Shown: one piece after another, positions 1,682 to 29,095 of the stretch | Position numbering within the stretch: the first letter of the stretch is position 1 | How the letters are laid out: each line of letters opens with the position of its first letter | Source of the DNA: Escherichia phage vB_EcoM_OE5505 | Sequence record: NC_054926.1 | Length of the DNA: 64,000 bases | Direction: 5' to 3' (one strand) | The notes under the pieces: model-generated | Seen by the model: the letters and a program-made list of their open reading frames with translations, nothing else | The model's database searches: none | Told to the model about the DNA's origin: nothing | Made by a program: the position numbers and the translations under genes

Positions 1682-3661
1682 ATGACTTTATTATCTCCGG
1701 GCATTGAGCTCAAAGAAACTACGGTTCAAAGCACCGTGGTTAATAACTCTACTGGTACAGCAGCTTTGGCCGGTAAATTCCAGTGGGGTCCTGCTTTTCA
1801 GATTAAACAGGTTACAAACGAAGTAGATTTAGTTAATACTTTTGGTCAACCTACAGCTGAAACTGCTGACTATTTTATGTCTGCAATGAATTTCTTACAA
1901 TATGGAAATGATTTGCGAGTTGTGCGCGCTGTCGATAGAGATACCGCTAAAAACTCATCTCCGATTGCTGGTAATATTGAATACACAATTTCTACCCCAG
2001 GTAGTAACTACGCGGTTGGAGATAAAATCACGGTCAAATATGTTTCAGAAGATGTTGAAACAGAAGGTAAAATTACCGAAGTAGATGATGATGGAAAAAT
2101 TAAGAAAATTAATATTCCTACCGCAAAAATTATCGCTAAAGCAAAAGAAGTAGGTGAATATCCAGCATTAGGTTCTAATTGGACCGCGGAAATTTCTTCG
2201 TCTTCCTCTGGTTTAGCTGCAGTAATAACTCTTGGAAAAATTATTACTGATTCTGGTATTTTATTAGCTGAAATTGAAAATGCCGAAGCTGCTATGACAG
2301 CTGTTGACTTTCAGGCAAATCTCGAAAAATATGGAATTCCTGGAGTAGTAGCTCTTTATCCAGGCGAGTTGGGCGATAAAATCGAAATTGAAATCGTATC
2401 TAAAGCTGACTACGCAAAAGGTGCTTCTGCATTACTTCCAATTTATCCAGGTGGCGGAACACGCGCATCTACTGCTAAAGCGGTGTTTGGATATGGACCG
2501 CAAACTGATTCACAATACGCTATCATAGTTCGTCGCAATGATGCTATTGTTCAAAGCGTTGTTCTTTCAACAAAGCGTGGTGAAAAAGATATTTACGATA
2601 GTAACATCTATATTGATGACTTTTTCGCAAAAGGTGGTTCAGAATATATTTTCGCAACTGCGCAAAACTGGCCAGAAGGCTTCTCTGGAATTTTAACTCT
2701 GTCTGGTGGATTATCATCAAATGCTGAAGTAACAGCAGGAGATTTGATGGAAGCTTGGGACTTCTTTGCTGACCGCGAATCTGTTGACGTTCAGTTGTTT
2801 ATTGCGGGTTCTTGTGCCGGTGAATCTTTAGAAACAGCATCTACTGTCCAAAAACACGTCGTTTCAATTGGAGATGCTCGCCAAGATTGCTTAGTATTGT
2901 GCTCACCACCGCGTGAAACTGTTGTTGGAATTCCTGTAACTCGTGCTGTTGATAACTTAGTCAATTGGAGAACCGCATCAGGTTCATACACTGATAATAA
3001 CTTTAATATCAGTTCAACCTACGCAGCAATTGATGGTAACTACAAGTATCAGTATGACAAATATAATGATGTAAATCGTTGGGTTCCATTAGCAGCTGAC
3101 ATTGCTGGTTTATGCGCGAGAACTGATAACGTTTCTCAGACTTGGATGTCTCCAGCTGGTTATAATCGTGGCCAGATTCTTAACGTTATTAAACTTGCTA
3201 TTGAAACTCGTCAGGCGCAGCGCGACCGTTTATATCAAGAAGCTATCAACCCAGTAACTGGTACAGGTGGTGATGGTTACGTATTGTATGGTGATAAAAC
3301 AGCTACTTCTGTTCCTTCTCCATTTGATCATATTAACGTTCGTCGTCTGTTTAATATGTTGAAAACGAATATCGGACGTAGTTCAAAATATCGTTTGTTC
3401 GAATTAAACAACGCGTTTACTCGTTCATCATTCCGCACAGAAACTGCCCAATACTTACAGGGAATTAAAGCTCTCGGTGGAATTTATGAATATCGTGTAG
3501 TTTGCGATACAACAAATAACACTCCGTCAGTAATTGATAGAAATGAGTTTGTTGCAACATTCTACATTCAACCGGCTAGAAGCATTAACTACATTACCTT
3601 GAACTTCGTAGCAACTGCTACTGGTGCAGATTTCGATGAGTTAACTGGTCTTACAGGTTAA
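1682..3661 (+). CDS. 18: Tail sheath protein gp18
   Basis: 659-aa ORF, same length as T4 gp18; sequence recognised; position after gene 17. Confidence 0.95.
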   Translation: MTLLSPGIELKETTVQSTVVNNSTGTAALAGKFQWGPAFQIKQVTNEVDLVNTFGQPTAETADYFMSAMNFLQYGNDLRVVRAVDRDTAKNSSPIAGNIEYTISTPGSNYAVGDKITVKYVSEDVETEGKITEVDDDGKIKKINIPTAKIIAKAKEVGEYPALGSNWTAEISSSSSGLAAVITLGKIITDSGILLAEIENAEAAMTAVDFQANLEKYGIPGVVALYPGELGDKIEIEIVSKADYAKGASALLPIYPGGGTRASTAKAVFGYGPQTDSQYAIIVRRNDAIVQSVVLSTKRGEKDIYDSNIYIDDFFAKGGSEYIFATAQNWPEGFSGILTLSGGLSSNAEVTAGDLMEAWDFFADRESVDVQLFIAGSCAGESLETASTVQKHVVSIGDARQDCLVLCSPPRETVVGIPVTRAVDNLVNWRTASGSYTDNNFNISSTYAAIDGNYKYQYDKYNDVNRWVPLAADIAGLCARTDNVSQTWMSPAGYNRGQILNVIKLAIETRQAQRDRLYQEAINPVTGTGGDGYVLYGDKTATSVPSPFDHINVRRLFNMLKTNIGRSSKYRLFELNNAFTRSSFRTETAQYLQGIKALGGIYEYRVVCDTTNNTPSVIDRNEFVATFYIQPARSINYITLNFVATATGADFDELTGLTG

Positions 3662-3677
3662 TACGGTGCATTCTAAA

Positions 3678-3695
3678 GGCCTGTTTCGGCAGGCC
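3678..3695 (+). terminator. Hairpin after gene 18 (GGCCTG-tttcgg-CAGGCC), possible terminator/attenuator
   Basis: 6-bp perfect inverted repeat 17 nt after the gene 18 stop; no clear U-run, so weak. Confidence 0.35.
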
Positions 3696-3696
3696 A

Positions 3697-3763
3697 TATA
3701 AATACACTATATCCTTAATTCTTTAATTCTATATGCCCTAGGTTAAACATAGGGATATAAATA
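3697..3763 (+). promoter_or_regulatory. Two late promoter cores TATAAATA upstream of gene 19
   Basis: Exact TATAAATA at 3697-3704 and 3756-3763 in the 18/19 intergenic region. Confidence 0.5.
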
Positions 3764-3777
3764 CTACAGAGGCTAAT

Positions 3778-4269
3778 ATGTTTGTAGATGATGTAACACG
3801 AGCGTTTGAATCTGGTGATTTTGCTCGACCTAACTTATTCCAAGTAGAAATTTCTTATCTTGGACAAAATTTTACGTTTCAATGTAAAGCCACTGCTTTA
3901 CCAGCTGGTATTGTAGAAAAAATTCCAGTCGGTTTTATGAACCGTAAAATTAACGTAGCAGGCGATCGTACATTCGATGACTGGACTGTTACAGTAATGA
4001 ACGATGAGGCACATGATGCTCGTCAGAAGTTTGTTGATTGGCAAAGCATTGCTGCTGGGCAAGGGAACGAAATTACTGGTGGAAAACCAGCAGAGTATAA
4101 AAAGAGCGCTGTTGTTCGCCAATATGCTCGTGACGCTAAAACTGTAACAAAAGAAGTTGAAATTAAAGGCCTGTGGCCTACTAACGTGGGTGAACTTCAA
4201 TTAGATTGGGATTCAAACAATGAAATCCAAACCTTTGAAGTAACTCTCGCTCTCGATTATTGGGAATAA
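3778..4269 (+). CDS. 19: Tail tube protein gp19
   Basis: 163-aa ORF, same length as T4 gp19; sequence recognised. Confidence 0.95.
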   Translation: MFVDDVTRAFESGDFARPNLFQVEISYLGQNFTFQCKATALPAGIVEKIPVGFMNRKINVAGDRTFDDWTVTVMNDEAHDARQKFVDWQSIAAGQGNEITGGKPAEYKKSAVVRQYARDAKTVTKEVEIKGLWPTNVGELQLDWDSNNEIQTFEVTLALDYWE

Positions 4270-4301
4270 AATGAATGGGGAGAAATCCCCATCCTGCTTA
4301 A

Positions 4302-5926
<1,625 letters not shown>

Positions 5927-5927
<1 letters not shown>

Positions 5928-6166
5928 TGGAAGGTTTAATTGAAGCTATTAAATCAAACGACCTCGTAGCCGCTCGTAAATTATTTGCTGAAGCCATGGC
6001 TGCAAGAACGATTGATTTAATTAAAGAAGAAAAAATCGCTATCGCTCGTAATTTCTTAATCGAAGGTGAAGAACCTGACGATGAAGATGACGAAGATAGC
6101 GATGATAAAGACGACAAAAAAGACAAAAACTCTGATGAAGATGACGAAGACGAGGATGATGAATAA
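5927..6166 (+). CDS. 67: Prohead core protein gp67 (acidic C-terminal tail)
   Basis: 79-aa ORF with a D/E-rich C-terminus; TAATG overlap with the gene 20 stop; position between 20 and 21 as in T4. Confidence 0.8.
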
Positions 6167-24552: not shown

Positions 24553-24556
24553 CAAT

Positions 24557-24585
24557 GGGGACCGAAAGGTCCCCATATTTTATTT
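24557..24585. terminator. Bidirectional terminator between gene 54 (+) and the minus-strand early cluster
   Basis: GGGGACC-GAAA-GGUCCCC hairpin followed by ATATTTTATTT. Confidence 0.65.
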
Positions 24586-24870
24586 ACGGAATGAAATAAA
24601 AGCAGCAACTGAAGCAACAGAGGTTTCTTCAATATAAACCTCAATTTTTACCGGAGCTTCTGACTCAAATTTACCTGTTACTACACCTTGGAAAATACTT
24701 TCAGTCTGTTCTGGCTTTGAAAAATTTTCAGAAGGAAAAATTCCGAACTTTTTATCTGTTCCAAAAATTTTGATAAATTCATCATAAACTGCTTCATTAA
24801 AAGCGTTATCAGCAGGAATAACGCCTTCAACTACAAGTTCTTGACCTAAAAAGCGTAAAGAAGATTTCAT
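24580..24870 (-). CDS. Hypothetical protein (position of the T4 alt.-x ORFs)
   Basis: 96-aa ORF with ATG start and GAGG Shine-Dalgarno; preceded by an early-promoter-like element. Confidence 0.5.
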   Translation of the reverse strand: MKSSLRFLGQELVVEGVIPADNAFNEAVYDEFIKIFGTDKKFGIFPSENFSKPEQTESIFQGVVTGKFESEAPVKIEVYIEETSVASVAAFISFRK

Positions 24871-24931
24871 TTTGTGTTCCTCATGTTATGTCAGTAAGAC
24901 TACTATAACACAACACGAGGGACTTGTAAAC
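24871..24931 (-). promoter_or_regulatory. Early-type promoter plus conserved leader, copy A
   Basis: Minus strand reads GTTTAC-(18 nt)-TATAGT, then the leader AGTCTTACTGACATAACATGAGGA before the ATG at 24870. A 38-nt block (24878-24915) is identical to 40697-40734. Confidence 0.4.
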
Positions 24932-26982
24932 TACATTTTGAACTTTTTAGACATTCCGTTGATGTTAACCAAAGAAGCTAAGATTTGAGAAACTTCGCTT
25001 TCCTCTTCTTTTGATTCTTCTACAAGGAATTGATTAAATCCAGCCATTGGACGAACTTCACCAGTTTCCATTAGATGGTCGCCATCATATACTGATTCTT
25101 CTAATTGTTCAGAAGGAGGAACGATTGTACCTTCGATTAGATACTTGTTATAAGCAGTTTCTTTCATAAAGTAAGTACTTACTTTATTAATCTTCAGTAA
25201 AATTCCACGTGGTAGAATAATTTCAGCTTCTGACGGAAATCCTGATAAATGACCCGGAACGATAACTTTGATTCGCTCAGCTCCTTTAATTACCATACCC
25301 ACGCTAGTTTCAGCATCTTCATTAGCATATGTAGAATGACTACCCATATGCATCAAATCTTCTGCATCAACGGAACCTTCTCCTTCACCAGAAAATACTG
25401 CGCCGGAATCATCTAGAGCCATATAGTTTTTACCATGCTCACCGAAGATATTTGGTTTAAGCGATGTGGATACGAAGTTCTTGAAATAGAACATTTTATT
25501 TTCAATGTTATGACGCAAAGTTTTAAAGGTAACTTCTTGTCCACGGTAAAGTGTAGTTCCTGGAGGAAGAACTGAACCTTTAGCGAATGCAGAATCAAGC
25601 GTCTCAATATGTTTAATAGCTCGTTCCATATATTCTTCACGGGTAGAATCTGGTTTACCCAAAAGGAACGAGTTCATTTCAACATATGAATCTGCACAAT
25701 AATCTTCAATTACATCAGATTCAGCTTGAGTTAATCCTTTTGGAGTTACTTCAGTGCTTGCGTATTCATATGCCTGAGCAGCAGATTCATTAATCAATTT
25801 ATAAATGCCATTCATGACAAATTGAATAATAGCTGTCTTTTCATCTGGCGTAGCTTTAGAACCTTTAACCAAATCATTGATAATTTTCTTAATAACATCA
25901 AAGCTATTAGAAATATTAATATCAGCAAGATCGCTTAAAATTTTATCAGTCTTATAATCAAAGAATTCTTTATTCTTTAAATATTCTTGAGAACCTTGAT
26001 ATGTTATATCGCTCTGTAACTTGATAGATGGATCACGTAAACGTGCATGGGCTAATGCAATATGATTTCGGAAGCTTTCGAGTTCATAATCACTAGATTT
26101 AAAACGAGAAGCGCTTCTCATACCGCCTATAGCTCCTTTGCTGAAGTTTGAACCAATTTGAATAACGCCAGAGTTCATTGGTCCTTCTGCTTTATACACC
26201 GGAACTTTAGATTCAAACTCTTGATATTTCTTAGCAGCGAAGCTATCACCCTGAAGTGAAGCATCAACAGTAGAATATTGAGCTTGTGCTGCTAATCGAC
26301 GACTAATTTTAGTTTTCTGAATAACAGCTTGGTCCGTGCGCTTATCATTTTCTAAAGCAATAGAAGCAGCAACAGCTTTAGGAACAGCATTACCTGTTTT
26401 AACATCTACATAAACATCACCAACCTTTGATTCAACTTTTGTGAATAACTCAGTTGAAATAGGAGGTACACCTGGAATGTCTTCTAAATTGGCATTTTTA
26501 CGATAAACCATAATATATGCGTACTTTTTATCATAATCCCAGATTTCCTTTAAAAGAACATATCGACCTGCTCCTTTAGTACGTACTAAACGGTCAGCAA
26601 TAACTTGCATTTGACGAGCTGCGCCATTTGTTTTACTCTTTAGTACACGGAATAAGCACGCGTCAATTTTATACTGCTTCATTGTTTGAAGAGCAGTATC
26701 AAAAACGGCATTAATGACACCAATTGGATTTCCACCCAAGTTTTTAAGCTTAACTAATGATAGTTTCTCATTAACACCTATCATTACGATATGCATCATT
26801 TTATCGCCTGGCTTAACGTTTTTATTCGTATCACCACCAGAGGTGTATGTACAAAATCTAAATCCAGGAAGCACGCTTTCTTCGCCGGCTTGAATAGCAA
26901 AAATTTGTGGTATTTTATGCTTAGGATTTAAGTTAACAACCGGCGCCGAAGCGCCGTCAAATAATTCTGTAATAAGTTCCAT
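24931..26982 (-). CDS. Alt-family ADP-ribosyltransferase paralogue (second copy, 683 aa)
   Basis: Begins MELITELFD like Alt and has the same architecture; R/STS/ExE-like motifs are retained (LYRGQ, FVSTSL, SEAEIILPRG); the central region diverges from the upstream copy; its own AAGGA Shine-Dalgarno lies inside the upstream gene's 3' end. Confidence 0.8.
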   Translation of the reverse strand: MELITELFDGASAPVVNLNPKHKIPQIFAIQAGEESVLPGFRFCTYTSGGDTNKNVKPGDKMMHIVMIGVNEKLSLVKLKNLGGNPIGVINAVFDTALQTMKQYKIDACLFRVLKSKTNGAARQMQVIADRLVRTKGAGRYVLLKEIWDYDKKYAYIMVYRKNANLEDIPGVPPISTELFTKVESKVGDVYVDVKTGNAVPKAVAASIALENDKRTDQAVIQKTKISRRLAAQAQYSTVDASLQGDSFAAKKYQEFESKVPVYKAEGPMNSGVIQIGSNFSKGAIGGMRSASRFKSSDYELESFRNHIALAHARLRDPSIKLQSDITYQGSQEYLKNKEFFDYKTDKILSDLADINISNSFDVIKKIINDLVKGSKATPDEKTAIIQFVMNGIYKLINESAAQAYEYASTEVTPKGLTQAESDVIEDYCADSYVEMNSFLLGKPDSTREEYMERAIKHIETLDSAFAKGSVLPPGTTLYRGQEVTFKTLRHNIENKMFYFKNFVSTSLKPNIFGEHGKNYMALDDSGAVFSGEGEGSVDAEDLMHMGSHSTYANEDAETSVGMVIKGAERIKVIVPGHLSGFPSEAEIILPRGILLKINKVSTYFMKETAYNKYLIEGTIVPPSEQLEESVYDGDHLMETGEVRPMAGFNQFLVEESKEEESEVSQILASLVNINGMSKKFKM

Positions 26983-26985
26983 GAT

Positions 26986-29043
26986 TTATCCTTGAACGAA
27001 CTTGTAAGGCATGTTTGCAATATCTATACAAGACGCAATAATTCCAAGAGATGATTCTACTTTCTGTTTAACATTTGATGAAACAAATGATGCAAAGTCA
27101 ACTCTGTCTTCTACTTCAATATCACCTGTCATTGTAACTACTTCGCCGGTTTCCATTAGACGGTCACCGTCATAAATTACCGATTCGGTGAGTTCTTCTG
27201 TGGTCATAACTTCAGCTTGAATAAGCTTGTTGTTAGTTTTAACTGTTCCATCATTGTAAGATGCATCGGTTATTTTATTAACTTTGACCATTAATCCACG
27301 TGGCAAAATGACTTCCATTTCATTTGAAGGTGCTAAACTTCCACCTGGTAAAACAACATTGACTTTATCAGCCCCAGTAATAACCCATCCAATTCCAACT
27401 AAATTATCGCTAGAATTTACTAGTCCTTCATCAGTTTTATCAATAGAAACACTTAAACGCTTTTCGTCTGGTAAAACACCCACAGATGAATCAGTCATCC
27501 AGGTACCAAAAATATTTGGATATAATGATGTTGACACAAAATTTCTAAAATAAAAAACTCGATTTTTTACCAGTGCTTCATATATTGAAGGTAACATTCG
27601 TTGTGAACGATACAAAGTAATACCTTTTGGTAATCGTTCACCATTTTTAAAGGCTGAATCTAAATTATCAATAGCTTTTTCTATGTCAGATGCTGTCAAA
27701 ATACTTGTACGCTCATCTGGATTATATAATCCCAAAAGAGCATTATTTATGTCTACATATCCTGAACCTACGTATTCACGAATTCCGCGTTTTTGTGCTG
27801 GTGTGTATTTAGATGAATCTTTATTTTCGACTATAGGATGTAATGACCATCCAGCGGTAAGAGCATATCCACGCAATTCTCTTCGAATAATCTTTGTTTT
27901 TATTGCATTCCAAGAATTTTGTACTAACTCATTCGCAGCATCTTGATTTAAATGCGAATGCTTGTTAATGTTTCTTTCTAACCAAGCACCTTTATATTTT
28001 TCTAAAGTATCATCAACTATAGAAGCAATAGTTTCTAAAGTTTTTATTGAAGTAATAGATTCTTTTCGTAATCTTTCTAAAGCTTTATTTTTTATTTCTG
28101 CATTAACATCAGATTCTTTATCTTCAGGAATTATAGAAGCTTCTCTGAATGCCATTCCAGCTGTAACACTACTAAGAGCATTCTCTAATGCAAATCCTGA
28201 AGTAGAAATAACAGTTAATTCATTAGCGTCAGAAATTAAAGGAGCGTCAGCAGGTTTATTTAATTCTGCTGCTGAAGCCTCAAATTTTTGAAACATCGGC
28301 GTTTCAAATCTAGAAGATTCCAATGATTGACTTTGCGCAATTGCTCTACGGGAAATTTTAACTTTAACGATTACAGCTTGGTCAGAACGTTTATCATTTT
28401 CTTGCGCAATAGATGCTGCAATTGCCTCATTTTTAGTTACTTGAGCTCCAGTATCTTTATTGATATAAACATCACCGACCTTCGATTCAACTTTAGTAAA
28501 GAGCTCAGTACTAATTTCCGGAACTCCCGGAATGTCTTCTAGTGATACATTTTTGCGATGTATAAGAATATATGCATACTTTTTATCGTAATCCCAGAGT
28601 TCCTTAAGAAGGACGTATCTGCCACCTGAACGACTGCGGATAAGTCTATCAGCAATAAGTTGAATTTGACGAGCTTGACCAGCAGTTTTAGACTTAAGAA
28701 TACGGAGCATGCAGGCATCAATTTTATACTGACGCATCGTTTGCATTGCAACTGTAAAAACTGAATTGATATAATTAATTGGGCTTGGACCAAGACCTTT
28801 TAATTTAGCAATTGAACCTTTAGCAGTTAATGTAAAAGGAACAATATGCATCATTTTATCGCCCATCTTTAAATCGCGATTAGTATCACCTCCAGATGTA
28901 TAGGTACATAAACGAAAGCCTGGTTGTTCAATTGCATCATCAACATGAACTGAAAAAATTTGCGGTATTTTCTTCTTTGGATTTAAGTTTGTAATCGGAA
29001 GAGTAGTATCTTCGTCAAATAATTCTGTAATAAGTTCCATCAT
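26986..29043 (-). CDS. alt: Alt ADP-ribosyltransferase (685 aa)
   Basis: Sequence recognised as T4 Alt (about 682 aa in T4): MMELITELFDEDTTLPITNL...; R/STS/E motifs (LYRSQ, FVSTSL, EVILPRG). Confidence 0.9.
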   Translation of the reverse strand: MMELITELFDEDTTLPITNLNPKKKIPQIFSVHVDDAIEQPGFRLCTYTSGGDTNRDLKMGDKMMHIVPFTLTAKGSIAKLKGLGPSPINYINSVFTVAMQTMRQYKIDACMLRILKSKTAGQARQIQLIADRLIRSRSGGRYVLLKELWDYDKKYAYILIHRKNVSLEDIPGVPEISTELFTKVESKVGDVYINKDTGAQVTKNEAIAASIAQENDKRSDQAVIVKVKISRRAIAQSQSLESSRFETPMFQKFEASAAELNKPADAPLISDANELTVISTSGFALENALSSVTAGMAFREASIIPEDKESDVNAEIKNKALERLRKESITSIKTLETIASIVDDTLEKYKGAWLERNINKHSHLNQDAANELVQNSWNAIKTKIIRRELRGYALTAGWSLHPIVENKDSSKYTPAQKRGIREYVGSGYVDINNALLGLYNPDERTSILTASDIEKAIDNLDSAFKNGERLPKGITLYRSQRMLPSIYEALVKNRVFYFRNFVSTSLYPNIFGTWMTDSSVGVLPDEKRLSVSIDKTDEGLVNSSDNLVGIGWVITGADKVNVVLPGGSLAPSNEMEVILPRGLMVKVNKITDASYNDGTVKTNNKLIQAEVMTTEELTESVIYDGDRLMETGEVVTMTGDIEVEDRVDFASFVSSNVKQKVESSLGIIASCIDIANMPYKFVQG

Positions 29044-29063: not shown

Positions 29064-29071
29064 TATTTATA
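29064..29071 (-). promoter_or_regulatory. Late promoter core (TATAAATA on the minus strand) upstream of alt
   Basis: Plus strand TATTTATA is TATAAATA on the minus strand, about 20 nt upstream of the alt ATG. Alt is a head-packaged protein in T4, so late expression is expected. Confidence 0.5.
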
Positions 29072-29095
29072 AAATTAAAGGCCCGAAGGCCTTTA
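29071..29095 (-). terminator. Hairpin after the 62-aa ORF, upstream of alt
   Basis: AAAGGCC-cgaa-GGCCTTT palindrome overlapping the stop codon of the 62-aa ORF. Confidence 0.4.

Follow-up and report, generated by a model that had tools for sequence, protein, structure and literature searches.

The Alt protein of phage T4 (gpAlt, NP_049811) is a head-packaged and injected, arginine-specific mono-ADP-ribosyltransferase that modifies the α subunit of RNA polymerase and many other proteins and counteracts MazF. According to a 2025 preprint, T4 Alt also helps to evade Mokosh type I, and the Alt variant of Bas37 cannot take its place (10.1101/2025.11.20.689424). Here, we analyzed a 64,000-nt segment of the T-even (Tequatrovirus) genome of Escherichia phage vB_EcoM_OE5505 (NC_054926.1; the whole segment is termed the window, and all positions refer to it), in which a second full-length Alt-family gene, alt2, lies in tandem with alt. 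A sequence-only reading of the window had noted the pair and suggested that the second copy encodes a second injected effector with a different target range.

Alt2 has the same length and four-module architecture as T4 Alt, and it is encoded in what appears to be the same late operon. The N-terminal domain is 68% identical between the two proteins, and both carry the R/STS/ExE catalytic signature and the ITE and LxE motifs of the gp21 protease. In contrast, the central ∼180 amino acids (aa) have no detectable similarity, the ADP-ribosyltransferase (ART) domain is only 33–51% identical, and the acidic insert after STS differs. The alt gene of this phage is itself close to T4 alt, with a nonsynonymous substitution rate (dN) of 0.008.

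Paralogs adjoining alt were described in T4, RB49 and 44RR, with a full-length duplicate in 44RR (Nolan et al., 2006; PMC1524935), and tandem alt pairs near baseplate genes were also observed in Citrobacter CF1 and Krischvirus genomes. The tandem paralogs of these other genera (44RR ORF187c, RB49 ORF183c, Citrobacter CF1 and Krischvirus MIZ3) are 29–51% identical to Alt2. Tandem duplication of alt beside baseplate genes appears to be recurrent, and both independent events and one ancient event are possible.

More distant relatives of Alt2 are the C3, VIP2, Vis and CDTa toxins (PF03496), which have the same fold and catalytic motifs at ∼17% identity. Unlike Alt2, they are secreted toxins, and the phage modules (N-terminal domain, centre and gp21 propeptides) are missing from them. 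The T4 enzymes ModA and ModB are early proteins of ∼200 aa that are not packaged and have neither the Alt N-terminal domain nor the propeptides. They fall into the same R-S-E clade of phage ARTs as Alt2 (PMC5512222).

The second gene is labelled "Alt-like RNA polymerase ADP-ribosyltransferase" in the RefSeq records of T2 and many other Tequatroviruses. The record of fFiEco06 notes that aa 1–54 and 62–112 of its product match T4 Alt.-1 and Alt.-2, and that of Bas43 from the BASEL collection lists "ADP-ribosyltransferase Alt" together with "ADP-ribosyltransferase Alt2". The novelty implied by the sequence-only reading is therefore not upheld: with annotation in T2 and hundreds of relatives, and with the duplication noted in the T4 record, the feature was already known and the gene itself is no discovery. 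A functional study of the Alt2 protein, its packaging or its targets was not found in the searchable literature, which mostly excludes subscription journals.

alt2 is an intact gene and T4 alt.-1/alt.-2 are its remnant

As read from the sequence earlier, two full-length Alt-family open reading frames (ORFs) lie in tandem, 3 nt apart. The features that define the pair, and the segment of alt2 that T4 lacks, are as follows.

26986-29040, minus strand: alt, orthologous to T4 Alt; 684 aa when read from the second ATG, 685 aa when read from the first (29043)
24931-26982, minus strand: alt2, 683 aa, paralogous to alt over its full length and intact where T4 has alt.-1/alt.-2
24942-26634, minus strand: segment of 1,693 bp absent from T4, with direct repeats at alt2 nt 340-348 and 2033-2041

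The 3-nt gap separates the stop codon of alt from the start codon of alt2 (TAA atc ATG), and the junction reads ...caaggaTAAatcATGgaa. Two in-frame ATGs (atgatg, 29038–29043, minus strand) open alt; T4 is identical at this site and is annotated from the second one. A GAGG lies 5 nt from the second ATG, but only 2 nt from the first. This spacing and the T4 annotation make the second ATG (29040) the probable start of alt, so that the 685-aa frame reported earlier is right in its coordinates as an ORF, but the gene product probably has 684 aa. The Alt propeptide was given as seven residues in one review (PMC9026906) and as six in a mass spectrometry (MS) study (PMC5694885), and use of the first ATG would account for this discrepancy.

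Pairwise alignment (BLASTP) matched Alt and Alt2 over their full length with 41% identity (E = 1e-160), far beyond chance. The PF03496 profile (ADPrib_exo_Tox) scored 121.7 bits with Alt and 71.9 bits with Alt2, both above the cut-off of 23.4 bits, and phrog_802 ("Alt-like RNA polymerase ADP-ribosyltransferase") was matched end to end by both proteins. NCBIfam holds a model for neither of them.

The sequence-only reading had left open whether T4 has a full-length equivalent at the alt.-1 position. It does not: T2 and RB51 carry an intact alt2, and T4 has only a remnant. The T4 record states that alt.-1 and alt.-2 "reflect an old duplication of the first part of gene alt". We show that alt.-1 and alt.-2 (NP_049810 and NP_049809) are alt2 itself, frameshifted and internally deleted; the DNA is orthologous, broken in T4 and intact in this phage. 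The T4 segment corresponds to alt2 nt 1–339 joined to the last 20 nt of the gene, with 95.8% identity over 358 nt (the match as such extends over alt2 nt 1–347 at ∼95% identity and then skips directly to the final 20 nt). In T4, an A-run at nt 160 has lost one base, and the resulting frameshift splits alt.-1 from alt.-2. The repeat at the deletion end points is 9 bp long, CTAAA(A/G)AGT, and the T4 junction lies between two CTAAAAAGT copies. In T2, RB51 and SH7 the two repeats match exactly; in this phage, one of them carries a mismatch. When the 1,693-bp deletion and the 1-nt loss were introduced into alt2 in silico, the T4 sequence was obtained with 15 mismatches in 358 nt. The remnant and alt2 occupy the same position, between alt and alt.-3, and the PHROGs of Alt.-1 and Alt.-2 matched Alt2 with E = 2e-40 and 3e-38, when compared to 1e-21 and 2e-19 for Alt.

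A tblastn search of the phage collection retrieved 401 records with at least 80% identity to Alt2 (at least 90% in all but one), and the remainder were below 60% and held only Alt or distant Alt homologs. The T4-type deletion junction was present in 91 phage records vs. ∼400 with an intact alt2. Judged from these sequences, two intact genes are the common arrangement, and the T4 state is derived. The alt2 products of T2, RB51, SH7, fFiEco06 and Bas43 are 97–99.6% identical in aa sequence, and their genes lie in the same place between alt and alt.-3. Most orthologs have a 2-aa insertion (KAVAVAAS) that is missing from Alt2 of this phage.

Selection on alt2 was analyzed with five orthologs (this phage, fFiEco06, RB51, T2 and SH7). 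The synonymous rate (dS) was 0.09–0.23 and dN was 0.004–0.009, giving a dN/dS of 0.03–0.08; each of the four regions of the gene was constrained (dN/dS 0.014 to 0.071). These values indicate a working gene under strong purifying selection, and the earlier description of the second copy as apparently intact holds, with an uninterrupted ORF and a complete catalytic triad. The broken remnant in T4 documents that alt2 can be lost, and for this reason we considered that alt2 might be a duplicate in decay or encode a pseudo-enzyme without catalytic activity. Given that R/STS/ExE are intact, that dN/dS is low in every domain and that hundreds of isolates carry the gene at ≥97% identity, that reading is extremely improbable and effectively refuted at the sequence level; as a pseudogene, alt2 was ruled out by the dN/dS values and the intact motifs.

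Domains and catalytic signature of Alt2

The modules of alt2 and its catalytic codons map as follows.

26965-26982, minus strand: codons 1-6 (MELITE), predicted propeptide at the N-terminus, with the gp21 motif I-T-E at its end
26278-26964, minus strand: aa 7-235, N-terminal α/β domain (PF26846, Tevenvirinae_ADPRT), presumed head-targeting module
25729-26277, minus strand: aa 236-418, paralog-specific central module, predicted to be all-helical
25096-25728, minus strand: aa 419-629, ART domain (PF03496, motifs and model)
25543-25545, minus strand: catalytic codon of Arg480
25462-25470, minus strand: catalytic codons of STS505-507
25222-25230, minus strand: catalytic codons of E585-A-E587
24934-25095, minus strand: aa 630-683, predicted C-terminal propeptide after L-E-E629, with YDGD..ETGE and a ...KF end

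Identity to Alt varied strongly along the protein. It was 68% for the propeptide and N-terminal domain (aa 1–235), 39% for the ART helices (aa 419–470), 51% for the stretch from R to STS (aa 471–511), 28% for the acidic insert after STS (aa 512–556), 33% for the rest of the ART core (aa 557–629) and 43% for the C-terminal tail (aa 630–683). The assignment of PF26846 is a precomputed one, made for a 98%-identical Alt2 ortholog and for hybrid proteins, with no direct score for this Alt2.

The central regions had been described as strongly diverged, and the comparison bears this out: aa 236–418 can be aligned with Alt at 158 positions, of which 19.6% are identical, and the alignment has 43 gap columns. 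Profile-profile comparison of the Alt2-type and Alt-type central modules (hhalign) gave a probability of 0.6%, that is, no detectable similarity. The underlying alignments are shallow (effective number of sequences, Neff, ∼2), so extreme divergence and replacement of a cassette are indistinguishable. An exhaustive HMMER search with aa 236–425 (25708–26277) against 1.84 billion cluster representatives returned 0 matches, self included; since even the self-match was missing, the 50% cluster of Alt2 must have a representative with a different centre, perhaps linked via hybrids, and the null result says little.

Both proteins begin with MELITELFD and both have the complete catalytic signature, as the sequence-only reading had it, and careful alignment did not reveal a loss of the Alt2 triad. 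In Alt (numbered with the extra first Met) the motifs are YRS 478–480, STS 504–506 and EME 575–577, and in Alt2 they are YRG 479–481 (with Arg480), STS 505–507 and EAE 585–587. R/STS/ExE do not vary in an alignment of 14 family members and have the order and spacing of the R-S-E class; the Arg and ExE of Alt2 fall in the same columns as the R and QxE of C3cer, an enzyme of solved structure. By analogy, ExE in place of QxE predicts arginine specificity for Alt2.

An AlphaFold2 model of Alt2 was built from 14 sequences (mean predicted confidence, pLDDT, 60.7; ∼70–85 in the core strands and <50 in the acidic insert). With Foldseek, its ART core matched Vis, C3, CDTa and Certhrax with probability 1.0 (Vis 4xzk, E = 6e-8). 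In view of its moderate confidence, the model was used for secondary structure and for the ART fold, and not for the central or N-terminal folds. A sequence search of the PDB with Alt2 found no match, and a search with the family profile found distant ART toxins only; no Alt structure exists.

Taken together, the alignments show that Alt and Alt2 have their ends and their catalytic chemistry in common, and that the middle is private to each.

Head-packaging signatures, natural hybrids and the proposed role of Alt2

In T4 heads, MS showed that gp21 removes six N-terminal (ITE-6) and 63 C-terminal (LTE-619) residues from Alt, leaving a mature protein of 68.2 kDa (PMC5694885); processing of T4 Alt by gp21 is also treated in PMC9026906. 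Alt of this phage carries the ITE-6 and LTE protease motifs along with R, STS and ExE. When the T4 cleavage sites were applied to it, a mass of 68.1 kDa was computed, in agreement with the published value, which validates the mapping of the sites. The ITE at aa 4–6 and the LEE at aa 627–629 of Alt2 align with these sites of Alt, and the Glu at the P1 position is invariant in the family. The N-terminal I-x-E site noted in the sequence-only reading is thus present in both proteins, and the C-terminal LxE site strengthens the case for head packaging. ITE, as well as LxE followed by S..YDGD.L.ETGE, is invariant across the 14 family members. Cleavage at both sites would yield a mature Alt2 of 623 aa and 69.0 kDa and release an acidic C-terminal propeptide of 54 aa.

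In the C-terminal propeptides of the Alt family (24934–25095 and 26989–27183), Y-D-G-D..L.E-T-G-E and the K-F end are invariant in the 14 sequences. Conservation of a motif that gp21 removes suggests that the propeptide itself has a role; it might, for example, target the protein to the core or hold the enzyme inactive until maturation.

Some phages have a single, hybrid alt gene that is Alt-type at the N-terminus and Alt2-type from the centre through the ART domain to the tail. In the isolate ECML-134 (3201–5261 of the extracted locus) and in SCS4 the switch lies at ∼aa 150, and there is no second copy; a 65-kb Logan contig (hybrid at 4001–6055) has the layout of ECML-134 with a switch near aa 175–195. 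Other Logan assemblies show switches near aa 50, 100 and 225. The hybrids known from Logan assemblies are possibly chimeras, made by joins across shared k-mers. At least one hybrid is real, because the isolate ECML-134 and the near-identical SCS4 carry the hybrid as their only alt. Unequal crossover within the 68%-identical N-terminal domains explains the hybrids, and their existence shows that the N-terminal domains are interchangeable and that the catalytic half of Alt2 can serve as the only Alt of a phage.

The upstream alt gene occurs as two alleles, a T4-type of 682–686 aa, found in this phage, and a T2/RB51/Bas43-type of 697 aa (863–2959 in RB51 and 904–2997 in T2, coordinates of the extracted loci). 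The alleles differ by a dN of ∼0.21 (dN/dS ∼0.4), and the adjoining alt2 is nearly invariant. In this phage, the T4-type alt is paired with the standard alt2. Allele distribution and hybrids point to a mosaic organization of the alt locus.

On balance, and with some reserve, we consider Alt2 to be a second arginine ADP-ribosyltransferase that is made late, processed by gp21 and delivered from the head, and that would be directed to a different set of substrates by its private central module and its ART loops. The gene would have arisen by an old tandem duplication of alt and persisted as a functional paralog. Its product, built as Alt with a 6-residue propeptide, an N-terminal domain of ∼230 aa, a helical centre of ∼180 aa, a C3/VIP2-type R-S-ExE ART and an acidic C-terminal propeptide, would enter the prohead core via the shared N-terminal, and possibly the C-terminal, modules. 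There, gp21 would cut it behind ITE-6 and LEE-629, leaving a mature enzyme of ∼69 kDa, which would be ejected with the DNA and mono-ADP-ribosylate arginines on host proteins. Since the central module and the STS–ExE loops are unrelated or strongly diverged, the substrate set of Alt2 probably differs from that of Alt. In line with this proposal, Alt variants reportedly cannot replace one another in function against Mokosh type I (preprint 10.1101/2025.11.20.689424).

Several observations weigh against it. T4 and 90 other records lack alt2, and the gene is therefore dispensable on laboratory hosts. The AlphaFold model of Alt2 is of low confidence. In SH7, a phage with both copies, virion MS reported one ADP-ribosylase with 2 peptides, and its coordinates (119150–121210) are those of the upstream alt; this analysis was shallow (14 proteins in all), so the absence of Alt2 from it is weak evidence. 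Direct evidence for synthesis, packaging, cleavage or activity of the Alt2 protein was not found, and the suggestion of different targets draws on its divergence from Alt.

The SH7 result, and the fact that packaging is so far deduced from motifs, would also fit an active Alt2 that stays unpackaged and acts late in the producing cell, as an analogue of ModA and ModB. We regard this as unlikely: Alt2 has retained the N-terminal domain of Alt in full, together with both gp21 motifs and their propeptides, modules that have no obvious role outside the prohead and that ModA and ModB lack, and in natural hybrids its N-terminal domain swaps freely with that of Alt. The same architecture, the same catalytic class (ExE) and the same operon could instead mean that Alt2 is active but redundant with Alt, adding dose or backup on the same main target (Arg265 of RNA polymerase α and the usual substrates), and T4 has lost alt2 without a known defect on laboratory hosts. 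Redundancy is, however, hard to reconcile with central modules lacking detectable homology (hhalign 0.6%, 20% identity), with an insert on the PN/ARTT side that is 28% identical, and with a dN/dS of ∼0.04 in ∼400 genomes, which would not be expected for two redundant copies; even alleles of Alt differ in anti-Mokosh activity. It seems to us about as improbable as an unpackaged Alt2, and a head-delivered Alt2 with substrates of its own remains the preferred reading.

Transcription signals, neighboring genes and significance of the second Alt

The signals around the pair and its downstream neighbor are as follows.

29077-29094, minus strand: terminator-like GC hairpin aaaggccttcgggccttt followed by aatttt, overlapping the stop codon of alt.1
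29064-29071, minus strand: T4-type late promoter TATAAATA, upstream of alt and conserved in T4
26989-26993, minus strand: Shine-Dalgarno sequence AAGGA of alt2, within the last alt codons and 6 nt before the alt2 ATG
24902-24930, minus strand: sigma-70/T4-early-like promoter (TTTACA, 17-nt spacer, TG-TATAGT), a consensus match only
24580-24870, minus strand: alt.-3, 96 aa, DUF5498, downstream neighbor of alt2
24555-24576, either strand: strong bidirectional intrinsic terminator between alt.-3 and gene 54, ending the alt-alt2-alt.-3 unit

The late promoter motif upstream of alt is the sole minus-strand copy of TATAAATA between 18284 and 34751, and none is internal to alt or alt2. A scan and inspection revealed no terminator between alt, alt2 and alt.-3. 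Under the proposed mechanism, alt2 would be transcribed late from the promoter before alt and translated from its own Shine-Dalgarno sequence. Late co-transcription of alt and alt2, like the level at which alt2 would be expressed, is something that we infer from these signals. The GC hairpin was read by eye and is absent from the list of the automatic scan; T4 has the same element. It probably insulates alt from early transcripts of gene 30.

The early-like promoter lies directly 3′ of the alt2 stop codon, in front of alt.-3, which may thus have two modes of transcription: alone in the early phase, and by read-through of the alt–alt2 transcript in the late phase. T4 mutants whose Alt.-3 is extended at its C-terminus escape the CmdTAC defense (PMC11618068).

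In the window, the genes for gp29, gp48 and gp54 on the plus strand are followed on the minus strand by alt.-3, the two long ORFs, alt.1, the DNA ligase gene (gene 30) and 30.1. The closest deposited genomes, 97–98.7% identical, are those of vB_EcoM_JB75, PYps55T and UPWr_E2.

Alt has recently been linked to counter-defense (MazF, Mokosh type I), and one allele cannot replace another, which makes Alt2 a tractable candidate for a second early host-takeover or anti-defense activity. More tentatively, and with more doubt than confidence, the private centre of a head-delivered Alt2 might steer the ART domain to an immunity protein or toxin of the host that Alt leaves unmodified, and the alt locus, with its two Alt alleles and with Alt2 present, deleted or fused, might be a fast-shuffling counter-defense cassette. 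If true, this would explain part of the difference in defense sensitivity between T2-like phages and T4, which has lost alt2. Knowledge of injected phage ADP-ribosyltransferases comes almost entirely from T4, itself a natural deletion mutant at this locus; most natural Tequatroviruses, T2 included, probably deliver two different Alt enzymes.

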